This document shows positions 4,515 through 31,031 of a DNA stretch of 64,000 nucleotides, in pieces. A program made the translations under genes and the position numbers. The stretch spans positions 1,214,660 through 1,278,659 of the forward strand of contig JAXMBC010000001.1 in NCBI GenBank assembly GCA_046350055.1. The letters are read 5' to 3'. The DNA is from Gemmatales bacterium (GTDB lineage: Bacteria; Planctomycetota; Planctomycetia; Gemmatales; HRBIN36). The notes beneath the pieces were generated by a model. It searched no databases and was not told where the DNA came from. It worked only from the letters and a program-made list of their open reading frames with translations. Every line of letters begins with the position of its first letter. The first letter of the stretch is position 1.

Positions 4515-4886
4515 ATGGTTCGCATCCTGTCCCTCTTCGCCCTCGCGCTCATCGTCGTCACTCCTTCCTTGGCTGACGACAAGATCGATGGCAAACTCCT
4601 CCTCGGCAAATGGGAACCCACCGGCGACAAGGTCCCCCCGGGACTCAAGGCTGTCATCGACTTCCAGAAAGATGACAAGGTCGTTGTCGAAGTCGACTTC
4701 AATGGCAAGTCGCAGAAGCTCGAAGGCAAGTACAAGATCGATGGCAACAAACTGGAAATGACCATGAAAAACCCCGACGGCCAGGAACGCTCCCAGAAGA
4801 TGACGATCGTCAAACTCAGCGCCAAGGAAGTCACCATCAAGGACGAAGACAAGAACGAAGAGCAGGTGCTGAAGAAGGTCTCGTGA
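4515..4886 (+). CDS. small secreted lipocalin-like protein (resembles the Gemmata paralogous family TIGR03066)
   Basis: It has a signal peptide followed by the pattern GKWEP...F.KDDKV...GKY.IDGNKLE. Confidence 0.55.
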   Translation: MVRILSLFALALIVVTPSLADDKIDGKLLLGKWEPTGDKVPPGLKAVIDFQKDDKVVVEVDFNGKSQKLEGKYKIDGNKLEMTMKNPDGQERSQKMTIVKLSAKEVTIKDEDKNEEQVLKKVS

Positions 4887-4934
4887 ACCGGCCTTGCCCG
4901 TTCCCCGTCATGACGCTATGACAACATCAACCAC

Positions 4935-5006
4935 TACCCCGTGGTGTAACTGGTAACACTAGAGTTTTTGGTACTCTCATTTCTGGTTCGAATCCAGACG
5001 GGGTAA
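4935..5006 (+). tRNA. tRNA-Gln (anticodon UUG)
   Basis: A hand-folded cloverleaf. The acceptor stem is TACCCCG/CGGGGTA and the D stem is GTGT/ACAC with a GG loop. The anticodon stem is AGAGT/ACTCT with loop TT-TTG-GT. The T arm is TCTGG-TTCGAAT-CCAGA. CCA is not encoded. Confidence 0.9.
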
Positions 5007-5047
5007 TTTCCTTCAGATTCCACGGTAACTGATAACAAGCCGTTTTT

Positions 5048-5085
5048 CGCAAGAAGCCCCGTTTTCACGGGGTTTCTTGCGTTTG
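5048..5085 (+). terminator. rho-independent terminator after tRNA-Gln
   Basis: A 14-bp stem CGCAAGAAGCCCCG/CGGGGTTTCTTGCG with one mismatch and loop TTTTCA, followed by TTTG. Confidence 0.6.
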
Positions 5086-5191
5086 TGACTTTGCCTGACA
5101 TCCTTCTCCCTATCCCAGCTCAATGACGGGGGCATAGGCGTTACATTTCCGTTCTGCTCACGCCTCTATGCTGTGATCCCGCACAGGAACC

Positions 5192-7645
5192 GTGAGGCAA
5201 CCCATGTCCACTGCACCAGAAATCCAGTCGTCACCGCCACCTCCTTCATTCCTCGAAAGACTCCTCTCTCCGCAGGGTATCCAGGCACTGCTGGGCACGG
5301 GTGGAGCGTTGTTCGTCGGCGGCCTCATCACCTGGCTGGCGACGCTGGGAGTATTTGATCATCCGCTGGTGCTTGCTGCCTGTCTGGGTGGGGTGAACCT
5401 GGCGTTGCTGTTTGCCGGCTTTGCCCTGGTGCTGCGGTCCCGATATCAACTCGCAGGACTGGCACTGACGCTGCTGGCGTGCCTGGTGATGCCCTTGCAT
5501 TTGTGGTTCTATCACGCCCAGCACCTGCTCACCTTTGACAACCATCTCTGGGCAGCTGCGCTGGTGATTTCGTTGCTCTATGCCCTGACGGCCCGGGTGC
5601 TGCAGAACCTCTGGTTCGTGCCTATTTTCCTGGGTGGGATCGCGATGACCACGCTGTTGATCCTCGCAGATCTGGGACAGTTCTGGCAGGTGACGGCTCC
5701 AGCCATCGCCCTGGTGGGCATGGGGCTGGTGGCGATCCACGTCGAACGGCTCTTCACGCAGGATGCCGCCAGCCCGTTCCGACGGGAACGATTCGGGCTG
5801 GCCTTCTTCTGGAGCGGACATGCCTTGCTGGGACTGGGCCTCCTGATGGTGCTGGTCGCACAACTGGCCGGCGGACCGTTGTATGCTCATTACACCAAAT
5901 CGATCTACGATCAATGGAGCTTCACACGCACGGAGCTGGTGACGACACAGTCGGGCAAAGGTCTGGCACTATTCCTGGTACTCGTGGGAGTGTATGCCCA
6001 TCTCTATTCCGATATGGTGGTTCGTCGCAAGGGGTACTGCCTGCAGATTGCAGCTCTGCTGCTGGTGTGGGTCGAGTTCATCGTCATTGATCTGCTGAAC
6101 ATCTCGTTGAGCATCGAATCGCTCCTGGGACTGCTGGCCGGTACCGGCTTGCTGATTCAACTGCTGCACCGCCTGGTGGGGCATCGGCTGCCGGGGCAGA
6201 TGCCGGTGCTGCCGTTCCTGGCAAGCCTGCTGAGCATCGGTGCCACAATCGTCGGGCTGTTCTGCTACTTCACGGAGAATGTGCATTACGTATCCAGTGA
6301 ACTATCGCTTCACACGATTCAATCCCTGCCAACATTGCTGTTATCGATGGCGGTGGCTGCTGTTGCCCTGGCTGGCGGGTCGTTCACTTCGACTGACAGG
6401 AAAGCGAAGCTGTATCACAGCGGGTTCGGGCTGGCGGTGCTGCTCGTCGGTACACTCGCGATTGGTTGCTATGCAGTGGCGAACTGGTATGTCCAGTGTG
6501 CCCTGGTTCTGGGGATGGTGTGTGTGGCTGTCGTGGTGTCCTGGCAGCTGCGACAGTTGCGGGAGATCGGTCAGTTCGCCCATCTCTTCGCTGCCTTCTG
6601 GCTGCTGGTGGGTATGCCTAAGCTGCTGGCTCTGGGCAGCAGCGACATCTGGCTCATCGTAGGTGTGCTGTCTCTGGCTCTGTTGTTCTATGCACTGTGC
6701 ACCGTGCTGCTCAAGCAGCGTGGGGCGTTCGCCCTGGCGCTGCTCAGTCTGGTGCTGATTGTGCTGCACGTGTTTGCCTGGCTGCAACTGGTGCTGGCAT
6801 ACAAGATGGCAGCGGGTGCAGTCCTGGGTGCGAGCCTGCTGGTTGCGGGCAAGGCAACTGCTCGTTCTGCGTCCCTGGCAGCCAGTGCCCGCGTATTGAC
6901 GAAGATGGGGTCGGTGATCTTCTTTGTCTCGACCCTGGCAACCATTCTGCTGGGCGTGCAGACACTCGTGGCTTACACCTCACATGCGGTCATCTGGCCG
7001 GTGTTCTTCAGTCTGCTGCTGGAAGGCATCCTGGCTGCAGTGTTCTACCTGATGAACAAGAAGGATGTGTCAGCGAACCTCTTCTTCGCTACGGCTGTAA
7101 CCAACGCCAGCCTGGCGGTCGTTCTCCTGACGACGATGCTGGAACTGCCGATGTGGCGGAAGCTGGAAGTGGCAAGCGTGGGGCTGGGTCTGTTCATGAC
7201 CGTGCTCGGCTTCCGGGCCTGGTTGCAGGAGGTGCAGGAGCGTCATCAGCAGCCTTCGGTCTCGCCCATGTTCCTGCTCGGTTCGTTGCTGGTGGGTGTG
7301 CCCATGGTCCTGGTAGTCATGGGGTACCGCAGCAGCGGGCAGTTCATGGTCCTGGACGAAGCCTCGATGTTCATCGTGGGACTGGTGATGCTGGGCCTCG
7401 GTTGCCTGTGTCAGCTCCGCATCCCCGCGATGGCGGGGGCAGCGTTGACGCTGCTGTATCTGGCAGGCCTGCTGCTGTTCGTGCCGTGGGGTCAGCTGGG
7501 AACAGCAGCCCTGGTGCTGGCTGGTGGCGGTGCCGGACTGTTCCTGATTGGCCTGGGTCTGAGCATCTTCCGCGACAGGCTGCTGGCTTTGCCACAGCAG
7601 GTGAAGCAGCGGCAGGGCATCTTTCAGGTGCTGGGCTGGAGGTAA
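5192..7645 (+). CDS. large polytopic integral membrane protein, function unknown
   Basis: The 817-aa ORF is almost entirely a series of hydrophobic helices. Codon bias is good. Confidence 0.6.
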   Translation: MRQPMSTAPEIQSSPPPPSFLERLLSPQGIQALLGTGGALFVGGLITWLATLGVFDHPLVLAACLGGVNLALLFAGFALVLRSRYQLAGLALTLLACLVMPLHLWFYHAQHLLTFDNHLWAAALVISLLYALTARVLQNLWFVPIFLGGIAMTTLLILADLGQFWQVTAPAIALVGMGLVAIHVERLFTQDAASPFRRERFGLAFFWSGHALLGLGLLMVLVAQLAGGPLYAHYTKSIYDQWSFTRTELVTTQSGKGLALFLVLVGVYAHLYSDMVVRRKGYCLQIAALLLVWVEFIVIDLLNISLSIESLLGLLAGTGLLIQLLHRLVGHRLPGQMPVLPFLASLLSIGATIVGLFCYFTENVHYVSSELSLHTIQSLPTLLLSMAVAAVALAGGSFTSTDRKAKLYHSGFGLAVLLVGTLAIGCYAVANWYVQCALVLGMVCVAVVVSWQLRQLREIGQFAHLFAAFWLLVGMPKLLALGSSDIWLIVGVLSLALLFYALCTVLLKQRGAFALALLSLVLIVLHVFAWLQLVLAYKMAAGAVLGASLLVAGKATARSASLAASARVLTKMGSVIFFVSTLATILLGVQTLVAYTSHAVIWPVFFSLLLEGILAAVFYLMNKKDVSANLFFATAVTNASLAVVLLTTMLELPMWRKLEVASVGLGLFMTVLGFRAWLQEVQERHQQPSVSPMFLLGSLLVGVPMVLVVMGYRSSGQFMVLDEASMFIVGLVMLGLGCLCQLRIPAMAGAALTLLYLAGLLLFVPWGQLGTAALVLAGGGAGLFLIGLGLSIFRDRLLALPQQVKQRQGIFQVLGWR

Positions 7646-7650
7646 TGATC

Positions 7651-7800
7651 AGGTTCTCCCCCTTACGAAGGGGGAGCTAGAGGGGGTTTCACCGTGCGGG
7701 TGGATACAGTCTTGCGAATGCCAAACCGTTGGTGTATTTCGCGTAAGCACACGCCCTTGCAAGGTGCTACCCCTCCCAACCTCCCCTTCGAAAGGGGAGG
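7651..7800. repeat. copy 1 of a ~145-bp element with GC-hairpin termini (inverted relative to copy 2)
   Basis: The terminal hairpins are CTCCCCCTTACGAAGGGGGAG (7656-7676) and CCTCCCCTTCGAAAGGGGAGG (7780-7800). About 40 nt at each end match 12575-12715 in reverse complement. Confidence 0.7.
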
Positions 7801-24172: not shown

Positions 24173-24493
24173 TCACCCACCGATCAGTTGCTGCCATCCG
24201 AGCAACGCCTGACGGAACTCGTCCAGCCCGACACGGCACACCGGCATGGACTCGTCCCACAGGCACTTGATCTCGGCCCCGGCAGCCGACAGGGTAAGCA
24301 GGAACGCATTGCCGGTGCCGCTGAACCCCGACTGACAACCTGCGGCGACCGCCTCTGCCATCTCCACCAACTCGGCAGCCCCGTTCGGGCTGGATTGGAC
24401 ATCCTGTTCCAAGAACCAGCCGACGGCCTCGTGTGGCGGAGCCACCTCGCACCGCGGGTAGCCATGCGCGTCTCGCAGGAACCGGGCTTCCAC
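24173..24493 (-). CDS. cassette ORF f, hypothetical
   Basis: A 106-aa ORF with a GTG start, preceded on the minus strand by GTTCGGCGGCGGAGGGCTTGCGGCA. Confidence 0.5.
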   Translation of the reverse strand: MEARFLRDAHGYPRCEVAPPHEAVGWFLEQDVQSSPNGAAELVEMAEAVAAGCQSGFSGTGNAFLLTLSAAGAEIKCLWDESMPVCRVGLDEFRQALLGWQQLIGG

Positions 24494-24600
24494 TGCCGCA
24501 AGCCCTCCGCCGCCGAACGACCCCGCTCAGCGGCCGCGGGGGCTCGGTGAGCTGTGAGTCGCAGAAACGCTACATGCCCCCGCCGGTCTGCTGCAGCGCC

Positions 24601-24834
24601 TGGATACTAATCATAGCCCTTCGGTTACAGTGAAGTCGGCGAACTTCACTCCAGGAGAGACTACGATGCGTTACTACACCCAGACTCACCCATACTACTG
24701 TGGCGTCGACCTGCACGCAAGAAGCCCGGGTGCCATAGCCTGCGTGTACTCACGCTGGCTATGCCGAGGTACCCCAAGGTTCCGGCATAGTCAGGTCGAG
24801 TACGACCAGACTAGGGCCCCCTTGCTATAGAGGG
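24601..24834 (+). mobile_element. recombinase-less remnant of an IS110/IS1111-family element inserted in an attC-like site
   Basis: The left end has the hairpin AGTGAAGT-CGGCGA-ACTTCACT and GGAGAG upstream of the ATG at 24666. It encodes MRYYTQTHPYYCGVDLHARS, where GVDLH corresponds to the N-terminal GIDxH/K motif of DEDD (IS110) recombinases. The ORF is then fused directly to module A1. Confidence 0.5.
24725..24817 (+). repeat. structured module A, copy 1 (candidate IS1111-type right end / guide RNA)
   Basis: H1 is 24734-24763 (CATAGCC-T-GCGTG TACT CACGC-T-GGCTATG). H2 is 24759-24790 (CTATGCCG...CGGCATAG). H3 is 24794-24807 (GGTCG AGTA CGACC). Confidence 0.7.
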
Positions 24835-25262
24835 GTTCGGCGTGCCTCTGCTTCTGCAGCCCACAGGGACCAATACCGCTCGGCCGCCGCCTCCAACTCC
24901 GCCTGCGACAGCGGCTGGCCCTCGGCGGTGGCTGCGTGTGTTGACGAGTACCGCGTCAGCAGGTAGCCGCCGCCCCCACGGTCCGAGCACTCGACGCGGA
25001 TGGCCCCCTCGGCCACCTCCGCCGACAGCACCTCCAGGCCGATCGCGGCGATGGCGACCGGGTCGGACACCGGCGGCCCCTCGTAGGGGTGGTACTCGAA
25101 CCGCTCGCACCCGGTGAGCGTGACCAGCACATGCTCGGCGCGGGTGGGCAGGTGGCCGCACAGGTACGAGATGCCGACTGACAGCCGGAGGTCGCCGGGG
25201 ACTGAGCCCTCGGCTGCCGACACCTCGCCGTCGTGCAGCACGTTCCAGATGGCGACATCCAC
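24825..25262 (-). CDS. cassette ORF e, hypothetical
   Basis: A 145-aa ORF with a GTG start and GGAGGG 9 nt upstream. The GCCGAAC box overlaps its last codons (CGC CGA ACC CCT CTA TAG). Confidence 0.5.
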   Translation of the reverse strand: MDVAIWNVLHDGEVSAAEGSVPGDLRLSVGISYLCGHLPTRAEHVLVTLTGCERFEYHPYEGPPVSDPVAIAAIGLEVLSAEVAEGAIRVECSDRGGGGYLLTRYSSTHAATAEGQPLSQAELEAAAERYWSLWAAEAEARRTPL

Positions 25263-25286
25263 CCGTTGCGCCCTCCGCCGCCGAAC

Positions 25287-25442
25287 AGATGCTTCTCTGA
25301 CCTATAGGTCAGAGAGTAAACTACACAGGTCAGATAATACCGGCTTGTCTCCAGCCTGGTCAAGCGATTACATCGAAACGTCGGCTTTCCTGATCTCCCA
25401 CTTTCTCCAAGCCGTCCACTAGCCACCACCCTGGTGTACAAG
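25287..25442 (-). promoter_or_regulatory. element B, copy 1 (short form): outward promoter plus palindromic operator/hairpin facing ORF e
   Basis: On the minus strand, TTGACC (25363-25358) is followed by an 18-nt spacer and TATTAT (25339-25334). A CTGACC half-site and the perfect 22-bp palindrome TCTCTGACCTATAGGTCAGAGA (25294-25315) follow. Confidence 0.55.
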
Positions 25443-25534
25443 CCTATCATAACAGGGAGGCAGGCCTGCGAAGGTCGTGGAGACGGTCTGTCTATAGAGT
25501 GCAGTAACCGTGGCACGATGAACTCCGCCGCGCG

Positions 25535-25630
25535 CCCGGGTGCCATAGCCTGCGTGTACTCACGCTGGCTATGCCGAGGTACTCCGAGGTTCGGGCATAG
25601 TCAGGTCGAGTACGACCAGAGGCCGTCCGG
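25535..25630 (+). repeat. structured module A, copy 2
   Basis: It is near-identical to copy 1, with H1 at 25544-25573. The H2 3' arm reads GGTTCGGGC. It is preceded by segment C, which ends in ATGAACTCCGCCGCGC. Confidence 0.7.
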
Positions 25631-25788
25631 TAATTGAGTTGATCTAAACTGCCTGATCTCTTGAGGTTACGTTGTTGTTTGCCAACGCCAACGCAACACA
25701 TCAGGAGATCAGGCATTGCTTAGTGCCAAGGACGGCACGTCGCTCGCCACGTTGATACAGCAAGCCATTCCTGTTTGTCAGGAAGCGG

Positions 25789-25890
25789 CGGGTGCCATAG
25801 CCTGCGTGTACTCACGCTGGCTATGCCGAGGTACTCCAAGCTTCCGGCACAGTCAGGTCGAGTACGACCAGGCTTTGGCACCCGTGCGAG
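25789..25890 (+). repeat. structured module A, copy 3, with a perfect closing stem
   Basis: The closing stem is CGGGTGCC (25789-25796) paired with GGCACCCG (25877-25884). H1 is at 25796-25825. The module ends at the stop codon of ORF d. Confidence 0.7.
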
Positions 25891-25894
25891 CCAG

Positions 25895-26413
25895 CTACCA
25901 AGTCCGATGATAGCGGAACCCATCGTGATCCGTGCCCTCGATGTATCCCATCGCTGACAATGTCTGTTCAGCCGCCCGCCGCCGCGTGAACCCGAGCAAG
26001 TCCTCGCGGCCGGCGTTCGTGAGTTCCGCGGCGACCCGCTCAAAGGTGCACCGCGGGTCGTGACCGAGCAACTCGGCCGAGCGCCACGGGAGCGGCATGA
26101 CCAAAAGCTTCTCCCGGTCGTCGTCGGGGTCCGCCAGACCCAGAGCGAGGAGGGCCAACTCGAGCGTCTCTAGGGACGCCCGGCGCACCGCCAGTGCAGC
26201 GGATCGCTCCGCGTAGCACAGCAGGACGGATGCTAGCCCGCCGTCCATGCAGCCGAGAAATTCGGCGGCAGACGGGCCAGCGTCACGGGCAGTCCGCAGG
26301 AGTGCCTCGACGGACTCATCAAGCGGATGAGGTATAGGCCGCGGGCCGTAGCCATCGTACACGCCGTCTCAGATTGCGGCGTCAACCCGGTCAGCAATGT
26401 CGTCGAGACCCAT
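25895..26413 (-). pseudogene. cassette ORF d with an in-frame TGA after codon 14
   Basis: On the minus strand, GAGGAGG lies upstream (7-nt spacer) of the ATG at 26413. This encodes MGLDDIADRVDAAI, then TGA (26371-26369), and the same frame continues DGVYDGYGPRPIP... to 25895. The track lists only 25895..26362. Confidence 0.45.
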
Positions 26414-26427
26414 CGCCCTGCCTCCTC

Positions 26428-26523
26428 GCCGAACGACCCCGCTCAGCAGCGGCGGGGCACCGGCGAGCTTGGACTCCCAGAACAGCGTCATGCCCCGCCG
26501 TCTGCTGCAGTGCCTCGTTCGGC
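26428..26523. other. intact attC-like site (96 bp)
   Basis: It runs from GCCGAAC (26428-26434) to GTTCGGC (26517-26523). The arms CAGCAGCGGCGGGGC and GCCCCGCCG-T-CTGCTG pair, leaving one unpaired T. Confidence 0.6.
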
Positions 26524-26529
26524 GTGCCT

Positions 26530-26931
26530 TTAGCTCATCTGGAGCCGGAACCCAATGCCCTCTGACGCTGCAACCCCAAGGACCCGCGCCATCTCCTCCA
26601 ACTCCTCGACCACTCCGGCGGACTCGTCGAGCCGCTTCGCCGCCTTCGGGCTGGCCTTGATGTGGTCGGCGAGGGCTTGCATCGCGGCCCGGCCCTCGGC
26701 CGGATCGAACCACTCAGTCCACTCGCCCATGACCTCCGCAAGGTCGTCCGGATCGCCGTCGAAATCCTCGGGGATCGGGCGGTTGTCCGCGAACGCCGTG
26801 AACGGCGTGAGCTTGGCCGCCCGTGCGATCTTGTCGAGTACCTCGAAGTTCGCCGCCAAGACCTCGCCGAGGGCGACGAACTTGGTGCCCGTCAGCTTGG
26901 GCTGGAACACTGGGTAGATGCCCAAGCTCAT
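26530..26931 (-). CDS. cassette ORF c, hypothetical (acidic; immunity-protein-like flavour)
   Basis: A 133-aa ORF with the ATG preceded by GGCGGAGGGCAAGCGG. It reads MSLGIYPVFQPKL...PEDFDGDPDDLAEVMGEWTEWFDPAEG. Confidence 0.55.
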   Translation of the reverse strand: MSLGIYPVFQPKLTGTKFVALGEVLAANFEVLDKIARAAKLTPFTAFADNRPIPEDFDGDPDDLAEVMGEWTEWFDPAEGRAAMQALADHIKASPKAAKRLDESAGVVEELEEMARVLGVAASEGIGFRLQMS

Positions 26932-26954
26932 CCGCTTGCCCTCCGCCGCCGAAC

Positions 26955-27173
26955 AGTTGTTTCTCTGACCTATAGGTCAGAGAGTAAACTACACAGGTCA
27001 GATAATACCGGCTCGACTCCAGCCTGGTCAAGCGATTAGCCTCGGATGGTCCAATTCCCTGACCTAAACTCTGATGAAGCTCCTCGACTACTGACAAACT
27101 CTGTCTCGACCTTTCAGTTTACTATCTGCAACTTTCTCCAAACCGTTCACTAGCCACCACTCTGGTGTACAAG
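26955..27173 (-). promoter_or_regulatory. element B, copy 2 (long form): outward promoter plus palindrome facing ORF c
   Basis: On the minus strand, TTGACC (27031-27026) is followed by an 18-nt spacer and TATTAT (27007-27002). The palindrome is at 26962-26983. Confidence 0.55.
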
Positions 27174-27174
27174 T

Positions 27175-27290
27175 CCGGGTGCCATAGCCTGTGTGTACTC
27201 ACCCTGGCTATGCCGAGATACTCCAAGGTTCCGGCATAGTCAGGTCAAGTACGATCAGACTAGGGCACCCGGGCACCCGTGCAGCGACTG
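27175..27290 (+). repeat. structured module A, copy 4, with a closing stem and full 3' tail
   Basis: The closing stem is CCGGGTGCC (27175-27183) paired with GGCACCCGG (27264-27272). The tail GCACCCGTGCAGCGACTG abuts GTTCGGC (27291-27297). Confidence 0.7.
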
Positions 27291-27304
27291 GTTCGGCGGC
27301 GCCC

Positions 27305-27772
27305 TCACTCTTTAATACCCCAGCCCGCTAGTCGTTCCTTATGAGCGGCCGTGACTGCATTTTCATACGCAGCAGGGTCATTGAGCAATGTGGGCAGAAT
27401 GATTTTCTCGATGTCATCGACGACCGCATCAACGATGTCGCGCCCATCCGTCGTTTCGACGGCCCACTGCTTTTCGTTAAACCGGACTGCGCTTTCGCTA
27501 GCCCGGCCAAGCCGTTTGATCAAGTCGTCGTGACCACAAAGGAACTTCCCGTAATCATAGTTCGGTAATCCTAACTCGTCGTACCGAACAATCAGTCCGA
27601 TCTTTACCGGAGGCCTAATGTAAAATCCGTTTGAAAAAGGGCCGCCAGAACTGACAGCATTGTGTTCGGCCTCAAAGACGAATCCGTGCGGATTCAGGAT
27701 CGGATCGAGCCGGGCGACAATTGCGAGCAGGCGATCGTGCGGTTGTCCCAGGTATTTTGAGGACTTACTCAT
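27305..27772 (-). CDS. cassette ORF b, hypothetical
   Basis: A 155-aa ORF from the ATG at 27772 (MSKSSKYLGQPHD...). The track start at 27799 lies inside the attC-like site. Confidence 0.55.
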   Translation of the reverse strand: MSKSSKYLGQPHDRLLAIVARLDPILNPHGFVFEAEHNAVSSGGPFSNGFYIRPPVKIGLIVRYDELGLPNYDYGKFLCGHDDLIKRLGRASESAVRFNEKQWAVETTDGRDIVDAVVDDIEKIILPTLLNDPAAYENAVTAAHKERLAGWGIKE

Positions 27773-27787
27773 GTCAGTCACCAAGCC

Positions 27788-27882
27788 GCCGAACGACACC
27801 GTTCACCTGCGAGGCGGCCGGTGAGACGTTGAACCCTGAAAAACCGTGATGCCGCCGCGTCAGGTGCAACGGCTGGTTCGCT
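27788..27882. other. intact attC-like site (95 bp)
   Basis: It runs from GCCGAAC (27788-27794) to GTTCGCT (27876-27882). The arms CACCTGCGAGGCGGC and GCCGCCGCG-T-CAGGTG covary relative to the site at 26428-26523. Confidence 0.6.
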
Positions 27883-27890
27883 GCGGCCCC

Positions 27891-28436
27891 TCAGTCGCAG
27901 TCTTGGTAGCCACCCAACTGACCACATTTTCTGCACCGAAACATGTACGCAGTCGGTGATCCTTCCTTGTCGAGTGCGGCGAGAAACTCCTCCCACTCGG
28001 GGCCATCTGAAAGGCCCGCGGAATCTTGAATCGCAGCTATTGCTTGTGGACCGAGAGCCTTCAACTCCTTCTTCCCAGCGCGCCCGATGAACTCAGCTGC
28101 ATCGCCACAATGGGTCCACCATTGCTCTTGTTGCCAGCCCGAGAATCCGGGAGTGCGATGGGCCACCTCCTCGATCACCTCTTCCGGCACTTCATCCCAC
28201 ATCCCGCCGCCGCCAATGCCGGCATCGTCGGTGAAGCTCGCTTCCAGTTTTTCATTAGCGGACCCGTCTGCGATGCACCAGGGGCATATGCATTGGTCGT
28301 ATTCCTCCACGGCGTAAACGGGGCCGGTGTAGATGAAGCCGCACGCCTTCCCACAGCAGGCGCATTCGGTATCGGACTTGATGACCATTCCGGTCGCCAA
28401 GGGGTCAGGGTGGTACTTGAAGGTTGGCAGTGCCAC
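27891..28436 (-). CDS. cassette ORF a, CbrC/UPF0167-family protein (colicin-tolerance-associated family)
   Basis: It reads LPTFKYHPDPLATG...CACCGK...CPWCIADGSA...FRCRKCG. It has a GTG start with AGGAG 7 nt upstream. Confidence 0.65.
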   Translation of the reverse strand: MALPTFKYHPDPLATGMVIKSDTECACCGKACGFIYTGPVYAVEEYDQCICPWCIADGSANEKLEASFTDDAGIGGGGMWDEVPEEVIEEVAHRTPGFSGWQQEQWWTHCGDAAEFIGRAGKKELKALGPQAIAAIQDSAGLSDGPEWEEFLAALDKEGSPTAYMFRCRKCGQLGGYQDCD

Positions 28437-28459
28437 GGTCGACTCCTAAAGCAGCGAAC

Positions 28460-28679
28460 AGTTGTTTCTCTGACCTATAGGTCAGAGAGTAAACCACACA
28501 GGTCAGATAATACCTGCTTGTCTCCAGCCTGGTCAAGCGATTAGCCTCGGAAGGTCCACTTCCCTGACCTAAACTCTGATGAAACTCCTCGACTACTGAC
28601 AATACTCTGTCTCGACCTTCAAGTTTACTATCTCCAACTTTCTCCAAACCGTCCACTAGCCACCACCCTGGTGTACAAG
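28460..28679 (-). promoter_or_regulatory. element B, copy 3 (long form): outward promoter plus palindrome facing the cbrC-like ORF
   Basis: On the minus strand, TTGACC (28536-28531) is followed by an 18-nt spacer and TATTAT (28512-28507). The palindrome is at 28467-28488. On the plus strand it is followed by segment C (28680-28770), but no module A is present. Confidence 0.55.
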
Positions 28680-29189
28680 CCTATCATAACAGGGAGGCAG
28701 GCCTGCGAAGGTCGTGGAGACGGTCTGTCTATAGAGTGCAGTAACCGTGGCACGATGAACTCCGCCGCGCACACAATCGCACGGTTGGTTGCATCGCCAC
28801 GAGGTGCTGCAGACGCGGCAGGATGCCGCGTCTACTTTGCGCACATGCGGTGCTGGGGATGAACCACTTCGCGTGCACGCGAGCCTTCAGATGGCGCGGG
28901 CGCGAATAGTTTGCTGCTGCATGAATCGACGGTGCACAGAATTCTGACGTAAGTCATTGACATCATTAACGATGCGCTGCGCACGAGTGGTTTGCCAGAT
29001 GAACTGAGACTGCACTGCCCCCGACTCTGCGACCCAAAGCCTCCCGCATACGGTGGATGTCGCCCTGAATCCACACCTCACCTTCACGCCAACCCTCGCT
29101 GCCATCCCTATACTAAACAGTTGCCAAGTCACCCAACCATTCGCCCCGCTCCTTCACTCTTCCGCTAAGGAGTCGGGCCAGGAAAGCAC

Positions 29190-31031
29190 ATGAAACGGAA
29201 CGATATTCGCAATGTCGCCATCATCGCCCACGTCGATCATGGCAAAACCACGCTCGTCGATGAAATGCTCAGGCAGTCAGGCCTCTTCCGCGCCGGCGAA
29301 CTCGAGAAGCTCGAAGGAGGCCAGCACGGCCTCATCATGGATTCCAACGAACTGGAACGGGAGCGGGGCATCACCATCCTCGCCAAGAACTGTGCCATCA
29401 AGTGGGGCGATACCAAGATCAACATCATCGATACCCCCGGCCACGCCGACTTCGGTGGCGAAGTGGAACGCGTCCTTCGCATGGCGGACGGTGCCGCACT
29501 GCTGGTCGATGCCGCCGAAGGCCCGTTGCCTCAGACCCGCTTCGTGCTCCGCAAGGCGTTCGAGTGTGGCCTCAAGCCCATTGTGGTGATCAACAAGATC
29601 GATCGTCCCGATGCCCGGGTGCAGGAAGTGCTCAATGGCATCTTCGATCTCTTCGTCGATCTCGATGCCGATGATGCGACCTGCGACTTCCCCGTGGTGT
29701 ATGCCTCGGGCCGCAATGGCTGGGCCAAGCTCAGCATGGATGACGAGAGCAAGGACTTGCGTCCCCTCGTCGAAACCATCATGAAGCACGTGCCGCCGCC
29801 TGATGTGAACCTGGATGCACCAGCCCAGTTCCAGGTGAACAACCTCGACCACAGCGAATTCGTCGGCCGCATTGCCGTGGGCAAGGTCTACGCTGGCAAG
29901 CTCAAGAAGAACCAGCGCGTGGCGGTGCTCTCCCGCGACAACAAGCGGACCGATTACAACATCAAGCAATTGCTGACCTTCGACCGTCTCGGTCGCAACG
30001 AGGTGGAGGAAGTGACCGCTGGCGACATCTGTGCCATCGTCGGCCTGACCGATGTGGAAATGGGCGACACGGTAGCAGATGTCGATCATCCCAATCCCCT
30101 TCCAGCACTGAAGGTCGATGAACCAACACTGACGATGCTCTTCCGCATCAACGATTCGCCCTTCTCCGGGCGTGATGGTGAGTACGTCACCAGCCGGCAG
30201 TTGCGCGACCGTCTGTTCAAGGAACTGGAACGCAACGTGGCCCTGCGGGTCGTGCCGGCAGCCAAGTCCGACGAGTTCATGGTCTCAGGCCGAGGTCTTC
30301 TGCACCTGGGCATTCTGCTCGAGACCATGCGCCGCGAAGGCTATGAGCTCAGCGTCGGCAAGCCCCGTGTCATCATGAAGGAAGAAGGGGGCATGAAGCT
30401 GGAGCCGGTGGAATACCTTGTGATCGAGTGTCCGCAAGGGTCCGTCGGTTCCGTCATGGAACTCGTCGGCAATCGCCGGGCAGAATGCCTGAAGATGGAT
30501 GCCCGAGGCGAACTGACCCACCTGGAGTTCACCATCCCCGCCCGAGGTCTCATCGGCCTCAAGACCCGGCTGCTCACTGCCACCAGCGGTCAGGCCATCA
30601 TGCACCACACGTTCTACGACTATCAGCCCAGCCGTGGAACCATCCCGTCACGGACCAACGGCGTGATGATCGCCACCGAAACTGGCCCCGCCACGTTCTA
30701 TGCCATTGAAGGCTTGCAGGACCGGGGCGTCATGTTCGTCTCGCCGCAGGATCAGTGTTATGAAGGACAGATCGTGGCCGAGCATTGCCGCGACAATGAC
30801 CTGCCTGTGAATATCGCCCGTGAGAAAAAGCTGACCAACATGCGGAACGCCAACGCCGAAAAGACGGTGGTGCTCAAGGCTCCCCGGCAGATGACGCTGG
30901 AAATGGCTCTCGAGTACATCGAAGACGATGAACTGGTGGAGATCACACCAAACTTCATCCGGCTACGGAAGATGATGCTCAAGGAAGCTGACCGCAAACG
31001 GTTCGACCGGTCGAACCGGGAGGCGGAATAA
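29190..31031 (+). CDS. typA: translational GTPase TypA/BipA
   Basis: It starts [24 protein letters not shown], has [12 protein letters not shown] and NKIDR, and is 613 aa long. Confidence 0.9.

Follow-up and report, generated by a model that had tools for sequence, protein, structure and literature searches.

Organisation of the locus and interruption of an attC-like site

We analysed a 64,000-nucleotide stretch of the genome of a Gemmatales bacterium (the window; coordinates are window positions, on the plus strand unless stated), which carries a gene cassette array at about 23.7–29.2 kb. The array consists of small minus-strand open reading frames (ORFs) and of attC-like sites that start with CGCCGAAC and end with GTTCGGCG on the plus strand. 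Two of the sites are intact (26425–26531 and 27785–27893), and the site downstream of the ORF at 24825–25262, belonging to cassette e, is broken by an insert of 230–234 bp. Sequence comparisons support the view that the 234 bases are a worn-down stub of a site-specific insertion sequence (IS) of the IS110 family. The features of the locus are as follows; L and P numbers denote related loci and proteins, respectively, that were collected in the analysis.

24511–24601, plus strand: attC-like site of cassette e, portion to the left of the insert; alignable with the intact site at 26427–26529
24602–24603, plus strand: left GG copy, read from the sequence; in relatives, the left junction is ...CCT / GG / ATACT and the right one ... 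/ GG / TTCGGC
24604–24665, plus strand: IS left end and 5' untranslated region; terminus common to L041, L126 and L130–L161
24666–24725, plus strand: first 20 codons of a DEDD transposase gene, MRYYTQTHPYYCGVDLHARS; remainder of the gene absent
24726–24821, plus strand: copy 1 of module A1, an imperfect palindrome of about 100 nucleotides (nt), CCGGGTGCC...GGCACCCGG in the best copy
24822–24833, plus strand: IS right-end tail, TTGCTATAGAGG; geometry and sequence like the right ends of L125, L132, L134, L155, L156 and L161
24834–24843, plus strand: right GG copy and remainder of the attC-like site; aligns with 26516–26529, and L125, L132 and L155 have this flank after their right ends
24825–25262, minus strand: ORF of cassette e, 145 amino acids (aa); its stop codon TAG lies inside the IS right-end tail
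26425–26531, plus strand: intact attC-like reference site, from alignment and fold
27785–27893, plus strand: second intact attC-like site, with CTGGTTCG at the position of the IS in site e; 88% identical to the site in L128

The sequence at 24590–24600 reads GCTGCAGCGCC, the insert begins with TGGATACTAATCATAGCC, and the site resumes with GTTCGGC at 24835–24841. When the two flanks of the interrupted site were joined, they aligned with 26421–26529 at 81.6% identity over 114 columns, and the alignment was continuous across the junction. The original prediction, which was made from the sequence of the window, had described an attC-like site collinear with the intact one and interrupted at 24601–24834. 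The collinearity was thus borne out, and the boundaries were right to within 3 nt. It had likewise placed the hairpin, the GGAGAG motif, the ATG start codon at 24666 and the 20 codons correctly, as well as their direct junction with module A1. Since GG occurs at both junctions (24602–24603 and 24834–24835) and the second intact site reads CTGGTTCG there, the element proper corresponds to 24604–24833 (230 nt) and is accompanied by one additional GG. This GG would be the dinucleotide core of recombination; in gammaproteobacterial members of the group, TG has the role that GG has here.

The original prediction had also proposed that removal of the insert would reconstruct an attC-like site, and deletion restored such a fold. 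The single-stranded DNA of the reconstructed empty site was predicted to form the same long imperfect hairpin as the two intact sites, in which the end boxes pair as an R-box stem of 8–10 bp and which has an internal loop and, on its 3' arm, two bulges of one base each. The predicted energy was −31.7 to −32.4 kcal/mol, compared with −36.7 and −32.0 kcal/mol for the intact sites. The imperfect hairpin typical of attC (R-box stem, unpaired spacer and extrahelical bases on one arm) was therefore present in the predicted DNA folds of all three sites. In the restored hairpin, the 5' arm is contributed by the segment 24511–24601, which opens with CGCCGAAC, complementary to the R' core. With respect to the cassettes, which lie on the minus strand, the plus strand is here the bottom strand. 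GTTCGGC at 24835–24841 is complementary to GCCGAAC, the R'' box as read in the direction of the cassettes. The end boxes GCCGAAC and GTTCGGC each deviate once from the RYYYAAC/GTTRRRY consensus, and the two deviations compensate each other, as expected for attC membership.

Left end and transposase fragment of the insert

The left end holds the conserved terminus (G)ATACTAAT, which in relatives is the −10 half of a circle-junction promoter. It is followed by the subterminal repeat ATAGC (24613–24617), a perfect 8-bp hairpin consisting of AGTGAAGT (24629–24636), CGGCGA and ACTTCACT (24643–24650), and the ribosome-binding site GGAGAG (24654–24659). In Gemmataceae metagenome-assembled genomes (MAGs) and in 32 metagenome contigs, the left terminus TGGATACTNATCAT(A/G)GCC adjoins an attC-like site of this family at an identical position. 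The form TGGATACTNNTCAT(A/G)GCC is common to L041, L126 and L130–L161, and TGATACTCATTGAGCC is present in about 40 gammaproteobacterial copies. The left termini of four sources read as follows.

Window: TGGATACTAATCATAGCC
About 40 gammaproteobacterial copies: TTGATACTCATTGAGCC
Planctomycetaceae MAG contigs: TTGATACTCATCATGGCC
Gemmataceae MAG (L041): TGGATACTACTCATGGCC

In all four sources, the terminus is followed by a stem-loop, a ribosome-binding site and ATG. The left end thus has counterparts at the 5' end of full-length elements that occupy the same position in attC. A hairpin of other sequence is found at the equivalent place in L002, L041 and L126. The hairpin loop had been noted because its GGCGAAC resembles the target box. 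Six of the seven bases do agree, but we regard the resemblance as a coincidence, as the loop is not kept in relatives, whose loops read TCGGTG, TGTGTG and CGAA.

The 20-codon fragment was compared with plasmid, genome and metagenome collections. A tblastn search of 7.3 Gb of plasmids returned 14 records with 63–74% identity, and all annotated matches began at codon 1 of a gene for an "IS110 family transposase". The metagenomic protein P0094 is identical to the window peptide at 18 of 20 residues, and DNA homology to the transposase gene (tnp) of L126, the contig of P0094, is 84% and stops at 24724. A degenerate DNA pattern for HPYYCG[IV]DLH detected 120 loci in species-representative genomes, many of them with 347-aa ORFs beginning M.FY...HPYYCGIDLHARS. 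A protein search seeded with the N-terminus of L041 gave 831 homologues, many with the Pfam domain PF01548. The full-length relatives L003 and L134 contain PF01548 (DEDD_Tnp_IS110) and PF02371, and in both of them PF01548 starts exactly at CG[IV]DLH, at residue 12–13. GVDLH of the window can therefore be assigned to the first catalytic-Asp motif of a DEDD recombinase, as had been proposed for it.

These results place the fragment in the IS110 family. It has the G-[IV]-D Asp motif at the start of the N-terminal DEDD/RuvC-like domain, of which just the portion for the first nine residues survives. The element was site-specific, would have shared a short core with its target, and shows neither long terminal inverted repeats nor a multi-base target duplication, as is usual in the family. 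The copy in the window lacks an intact transposase gene of about 340 aa, and with it the Transposase_20 domain (PF02371) of the C-terminus. Because the gene ends after codon 20, the window contains a remnant of a member of the family and not a functional member.

Position, orientation and right end in related elements

The same target, position and orientation recurred in relatives. In L126, the attC-like site is 85.6% identical to that of the window, and the similarity is continuous into TGGATACTCATCATAGCC. Three loci that were retrieved via their protein and not via the junction (L041, L124 and L128) show the same junction ...GCAGCG(C/G)C(T)-GG-ATAC. When metagenomes of the Joint Genome Institute (JGI) were scanned for CTGCAGCGCCTGGATACTNNTCAT, the 32 contigs mentioned above were found to have an identical junction, many of them with ORFs of 346–350 aa, and right ends were identified in several. 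The small cassette ORFs beside L127–L129 are all on the strand opposite tnp, as in the window. Thus, the insertions adjoin the R'' box and are antisense to the cassettes, which agrees with the fixed-orientation targeting of attC sites that had been suggested for the insert. The same geometry, with a constant insertion point close to the 5' end of attC and an orientation antisense to the cassettes, was described for IS1111-attC elements (Léon and Roy 2010, PMC3001079).

At the right end, 12 nt survive and read TTGCTATAGAGG / GG / TTCGGC, matching the right ends of relatives. The consensus of the relatives is TTGACA-N5-6-GAGGCCATAGAAG / GG / TTCGGC (L132, L134, L155, L156 and L161; L155 reads ...GAGGCCATAGAAG / GG / TTCGGCG), and L125, L146 and L149 are close variants. 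In the relatives, GAGGCCAT at the right end is the inverted partner of ATGGCCTC at the left end. In the window, the subterminal repeat GCTAT (24824–24828) is followed by a 5-nt extension and pairs with ATAGC of its own left end at the offsets found in relatives. The window has neither the −35 sequence TTGACA nor the GAGG portion of the repeat. In the relatives, TTGACA and GATACT of the left end would together form a promoter across the joined ends of a circular copy, by analogy with the circle-junction promoter described for ISEc11 and other members of the family (PMC11187229).

Relationship to known IS110-family lineages

We compared the element with known lineages using the ISfinder transposase set and the identity matrix from the supplement of Siddiquee et al. 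2024 (PMC11187229). By transposase sequence, it belongs to the ISGsu4/ISMahy12 clade and not to the described IS1111-attC clade. ISGsu4 and ISMahy12, which start with MRFYTKTHKYYCGIDLHARK and MNFYHSTHRHYCGIDLHARS, respectively, have the same N-terminal signature as the present element. Together with ISGsu5, they are about 347 aa long and have the same domain pair as the full-length relatives, whereas the window copy comprises just 20 codons. An NCBI record labels a Gemmataceae homologue "transposase of ISGsu5". In the literature searched, we found no description of the target specificity of ISGsu4, ISMahy12 or ISGsu5.

In the matrix, ISGsu4, ISMahy12 and ISGsu5 showed 15–23% identity to ISPst6, ISKpn4 and ISPa21 and 14–24% identity to all listed IS1111-group members. 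BLASTP of L003 against ISKpn4 gave 22% identity over 144 C-terminal aa only. On the basis of pairwise identity, the element thus falls outside the monophyletic ISPa21/ISPst6/ISKpn4 transposase clade, and its clade lacks the full-length transposase relatedness to IS1111 that Siddiquee et al. 2024 use in their definition. The insert had been predicted to be a member of the IS1111-attC kind; this holds for its behaviour (position in attC and orientation) and not for clade membership, given the identity of 15–23%.

The organisation of the element is nevertheless IS1111-like, with subterminal repeats and a long 3' non-coding region. In full-length relatives, the region downstream of tnp extends over about 730 nt (L128) or 600 nt (L134), and the 5' region over 75–190 nt; in the window, A1 stands in place of the 3' region. 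The subterminal repeats of the relatives are 8–9 bp long (ATGGCCTC/GAGGCCAT; GAGCCTCC/GGAGGCTC) and lie 9–10 and 5 nt from the core. According to the IS1111 definition, the repeats are 11–13 bp with a 7-bp left and a 3-bp right extension (Siddiquee et al. 2024, PMC11187229).

The present clade shares with the IS1111-attC group (ISPa21, ISPst6 and ISKpn4) a DEDD transposase, a fixed antisense site near the R'' end of attC, a 3' non-coding region, subterminal inverted repeats and a circle-junction promoter. The two differ in the N-terminus (MKRIAVDLAKS in the IS1111-attC group, M.FY..H.YYCG[IV]DLHAR here), in the subterminal repeats, which are longer and 7/3 nt from the core in that group and about 8–9 bp and 9–10/5 nt from it here, and in hosts and attC families, the present clade being found in Planctomycetota and marine Gammaproteobacteria. 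The IS1111-attC group is associated with Tetu and Holmes 2008 and Post and Hall 2009. In ISKpn4 and ISPst6, the 3' non-coding region gives rise to a seekRNA of 82–86 nt that matches both strands of the target (PMC11187229).

Module A1 and the interior of the insert

Module A1, to which the 20 codons are directly joined, folds as one long hairpin (fold z-scores −4.85 and −4.32; 41 base pairs in the consensus). The window has four copies, all on the plus strand and within 3 kb (24725–24823, 25535–25630, 25787–25885 and 27174–27272), and they are preceded by four differing left-hand sequences. The other three copies continue as GGCACCCGTGC... without a right-end tail. Copy 4 is located in an inter-cassette element (26938–27302), inside the centre of an attC-like site and left of ...GTGCAGCGACTG / GTTCGGC, which is not the insertion position of the IS. 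We also considered A1 as an attC site itself and rejected this, as it has no AAC...GTT at its ends.

A covariance model of A1, run over 45 sources (44 related loci, complete 3' regions included, and the window), recovered just the four window copies. No match was obtained by blastn against 160 loci or by pattern scans, which gave zero in species-representative genomes and zero in the JGI metagenomes, and Rfam found nothing over the array at 24400–29200, either at gathering thresholds or at E ≤ 5, so known RNA families were rejected. The 3' non-coding regions of L125 and L128 had no similarity to A1 or to the modules D2 and D4 described below. The sister derivatives L125, L130 and L132 keep the segments ...TGTTTGG(T/C)GC... 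and ...CGAACCATCC..., and the window copy keeps neither. Since A1 is absent from the 3' regions of the relatives examined, we read the stub as a composite of IS ends with a local repeat between them and not as a simple internal deletion. A1 is probably a local palindromic repeat that is not derived from the IS. The earlier suggestion of an internally deleted copy was thus correct for an IS remnant with a lost interior, and it was not for a simple deletion, as the interior is module A1.

The following history would account for the locus. A full-length element of about 1.7–2 kb from the ISGsu4/ISMahy12 clade, whose members combine a DEDD transposase with short subterminal inverted repeats and a long non-coding region downstream of tnp, would have inserted into the attC-like site of cassette e. 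The insertion would have been site-specific, between ...GCAGCGCCT-GG and TTCGGCG and directly beside the R'' box, with tnp opposite to the cassettes. By analogy with IS1111/IS110 elements, the position was probably set by an RNA from the 3' non-coding region that pairs with both target strands, and a circular IS copy would have recombined with the target at the shared dinucleotide GG. The circle junction of the stub would read …TATAGAGG-GG-ATACTAAT…. The interior would have been lost later, so that about 12 nt of the right end remain of the IS besides the left end with its 5' untranslated region and 20 codons. Insertion, or recombination between repeat copies, is the most likely way in which A1 arrived. 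We consider this combination of insertion, decay and a foreign A1 the best explanation as a whole, with a probability of roughly 0.85. The stub codes for no transposase, is missing the −35 part of the circle-junction promoter and one half of the right subterminal repeat, and contains nothing recognisable as a guide-RNA region, so it is almost certainly immobile.

Several points weigh against this explanation. Direct Pfam scans of the 20-aa fragment and of the 66-aa read-through ORF gave no match, both being too short, and a protein word search found no homologue of the 66-aa ORF. A full-length copy of the exact IS variant was not found in the collections searched. The window left end reads ATAGCC, where most relatives have ATGGCC. 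The subterminal repeat of the window is just 5 bp (ATAGC/GCTAT) and its tail 12 nt, which is weak evidence if taken alone. As for the foreign origin of A1, the nearest relative, L126, ends inside tnp and does not cover the 3' non-coding region. In A1, the motif CATAGCC/GGCTATG, which the IS has as its left subterminal repeat, occurs three times, and the apex of A1, GCCGAGG...GGTTCCGGC, resembles the target GCCGAAC...GTTCGGC. Both fit an IS-related origin, and A1 could be the variant's own 3' region. Immobility of the stub and loss of attC function are predictions.

The alternative that survives best, though still unlikely, is a one-step internal deletion in which A1 is the 3' non-coding region or guide RNA (of the seek or bridge type) of the IS variant. 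The 234-bp element would then be a miniature non-autonomous IS with both ends and its own guide, a full-length copy elsewhere could mobilise it, and further insertions would have left the other A1 copies as relics of their right ends. A1 does lie where relatives keep the 3' region, between the tnp remnant and the right end, and this region is retained in L125, L130 and L132. Its length of about 100 nt is comparable with the 82–96 nt of IS1111-family seekRNAs (PMC11187229), it is strongly structured (z = −4.85), it carries the subterminal-repeat motif of the IS three times, and 3' non-coding regions vary greatly between subgroups of the clade. In addition, the apical GCCGA (bottom strand of the target) precedes GGTTC(C)GGC (top strand), the order reported for IS1111 seekRNAs (PMC11187229). 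However, these matches in copy 1, and GGTTCGG in copy 2, cover 5–7 nt and are within chance expectation; the probability of a 7-mer match was about 0.17 when estimated by hand. Sequences or structures like A1 are absent from complete 3' regions, including those of L128, L134, L149, L155, L156 and L161, which have the identical target. The window lacks the clade-conserved ...TGTTTGG(T/C)GC... and the Gemmataceae-type ...CGAACCATCC..., as well as the −35 box and half of the right subterminal repeat. The other three copies are not followed by a right-end tail, and copy 4 is not at the IS position. A seekRNA or bridge RNA is expected to be conserved with its lineage, and A1 was found in the window only.

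IS derivatives resembling miniature inverted-repeat transposable elements, which keep the ends and have lost the transposase, offer a close comparison. The sisters L125, L130 and L132, of about 456–780 nt, keep 200–400 nt of the 3' region and a complete right end with the −35 box, whereas the window copy keeps neither. It is also improbable that the 234-bp element is a still mobilisable miniature IS of a second deep-branching DEDD lineage with independent attC targeting, with A1 as a compact guide RNA of a new type or as a hairpin like ssr9. If true, it would be a natural and very small RNA-guided recombination module tuned to folded recombination sites.

We give considerably less credence to A1 as a passenger module comparable to ssr9 of ISPpu9, with circles of tnp only, of tnp plus the module or of the module only, which would explain solitary A1. 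ISPpu9 of Pseudomonas putida, also of the IS110 family, sets a precedent with its modular circles, in which ssr9 occurs with and without tnp at hairpin targets of the repetitive extragenic palindromic type (PMC12288879). A1, similarly, is found both in the stub and alone, in one orientation and within a cassette array. The independent mobility of the structured ssr9 module was shown experimentally, whereas A1 is known from its sequence alone; its solitary copies have no borders resembling IS ends and are not at the IS target position. No relative carries the module, and local duplication explains four copies within 3 kb equally well.

A fragment of a group IIC-attC intron, or of another attC-specific element that is not an IS, can practically be dismissed: such introns (e.g. 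S.ma.I2) do share the niche, inserting in the attC bottom strand near its 5' end and antisense to cassettes (PMC3001079), but as retroelements they have a ribozyme and a reverse transcriptase, neither of which was found here, Rfam with its group II intron models gave nothing in 24400–29200 at E ≤ 5, and the coding fragment and both ends match IS110-family elements.

Other repeats occur between the cassettes. The spaces 25270–25894, 26938–27302 and 28444–28770 contain long elements of about 340–620 nt and not ordinary sites of about 105 nt. They begin right after (C)GCCGAAC or GCGAAC with AG(A/T)TG(C/T)TTCTCTGACCTATAGGTCAGAGAGTAAAC, a stretch that contains a perfect 22-nt palindrome and, after it, a −10-like GATAAT. 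They share the modules D2/D4, with or without D3, and two of them end in A1. As the end boxes and ...GTGCAGCGACTG / GTTCGGC are kept, the element at 26938–27302 sits in the centre of an attC-like site. No relatives of the long elements were found in any of the collected loci. Module D3 (25443–25508 and 28680–28745) starts with TATCATAAC and contains TGTCTATAGAGTG; it resembles the IS left end (TAATCATAGC) and right-end tail (TTGCTATAGAGGG) over a short length, and may by this resemblance be a second, smaller relic of the same IS.

Apparent targeting of attC-type sites, and 3' non-coding regions, in the clade

We examined the flanks of gammaproteobacterial copies, 38 of which had both flanks. 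The right flank is TG / TTA(G/T)RY-like, i.e. GTTA(G/T)RY-like when TG is included, with TT in 37 of 38 copies and A next in 35 of 38. The left flank follows the pattern GTCC...TT.A...GC(C)T. A sequence resembling the inverse core, TAAC[GA]C, was present 48–110 nt upstream in 19 of 38 copies, compared with 0 and 2 of 38 in control regions. Two further searches of the left flanks, for exact 7-mer inverse boxes (4 of 46 matches) and for ungapped complements (means of 11.9 and 11.4 matches), were uninformative. In the Planctomycetaceae MAG D1_Bin_8, the unoccupied copies in L091 are ordinary GCCTAAC...GTTAGGC attC sites. Related IS lie 2–4 nt before GTTAGGC in L091 (reverse strand, 5735–7770) and L094 (2302–2394), the right side being absent in both.

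From these flanking sequences, the clade as a whole seems to target attC-type sites, and it looks like a second attC-targeting lineage among IS110-family elements. We found no earlier description of attC targeting by this lineage in the literature searched. A survey of Shewanella integrons noted IS110-family insertions (ISSde13) in variable regions and did not report any IS that interrupts an attC site. The clade at the fixed attC position spans marine Gammaproteobacteria, Planctomycetota and a plasmid of Candidatus Manganitrophus, and its orientation is that of the IS1111-attC group, yet its transposases are only about 20% identical to those of that group. If true, RNA-guided DEDD recombinases acquired attC targeting on at least two occasions.

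The 3' non-coding regions of the clade contain look-alikes of the junctions. In gammaproteobacterial copies (L001, L003 and L005–L123), an internal look-alike of the right junction, GCCTCTATATG-TG-TTTGCTGTAAGCG (also GCCTCTATATG / TGTTTGC), lies about 140 nt upstream of the right end, the true end being GGCTCATATG / TG / TTAGGC. The candidate right end ...GCCTCTATATG / TGTTTGC was consequently rejected as internal. The look-alike was also seen in L002, L125, L128, L130 and L132, and L125 reads GAGGCC...AAAGC-TG-TTAGGCACC. A segment resembling the left junction, GAGCC-TG-ATACTAA, is present in these regions as well, and the motif TGTTTGG(T/C)GC is conserved across phyla. RNA guidance and a circle-junction promoter are known in the family (PMC11187229), and the look-alike segments are candidates for the donor- and target-reading parts of the clade's guide RNA. 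If true, they would provide natural material for studying how guide RNAs read structured targets.

Internally deleted sister derivatives recur in metagenomes and were found in L125 (1218 nt), L130 (2014–2460), L132 (217–672), L087 (about 990–1560) and L094 (2394 to about 2910). They are made up of the left end, 25–100 N-terminal codons, the last 200–400 nt of the 3' region and the right end; L094 is the exception, with an ORF that fuses N- and C-terminal parts and a right end that was not found. The 3' region, kept in several independent deletions, might be needed in cis. In L128, an unrelated second IS110-family element (about 4790–6270, METIYLVCAGLDVHQK...) lies about 20 nt from the right end of the first, just after ...TTCATTCAAG, as a nested insertion.

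Consequences for the cassette array

The predicted fold of the occupied site lacks the end-box stem. Because the insert separates the R''/GTTCGGC box from the hairpin, the site would no longer serve as a recombination site, and excision of cassette e there by an integron integrase should have become impossible. In the reconstructed empty site, the frame of the cassette e ORF is 22 codons longer and extends into the attC-like site.

For the locus itself, the result is routine annotation: a decayed IS split one cassette site, probably fusing two cassettes, and altered the end of one ORF. Such insertions and stubs hide attC sites from detection tools and can lock cassettes in place. Tetu and Holmes 2008 are reported to have described degenerate "footprints" in chromosomal arrays. 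The novelty is modest and consists of attC targeting at the level of a clade outside the IS1111-attC group and of the unexplained A1 hairpin.

The array lies between a gene for a PEP-CTERM protein and the ORF at 29190–31031, which by eye we take to be typA. A Pfam scan of 37 ORFs of the window detected no tyrosine-recombinase domain, and the array therefore looks like an attC cluster without an integrase. Among the cassette ORFs, 27891–28436 (minus strand) matched UPF0167 (E = 2.4e-60) and 24173–24493 (minus strand) matched UPF0231 (E = 2.7e-06), and the remaining ones had no Pfam match. The sole Rfam match at the gathering threshold in the window was a tRNA gene at 4935–5006 (plus strand, 56.5 bits).

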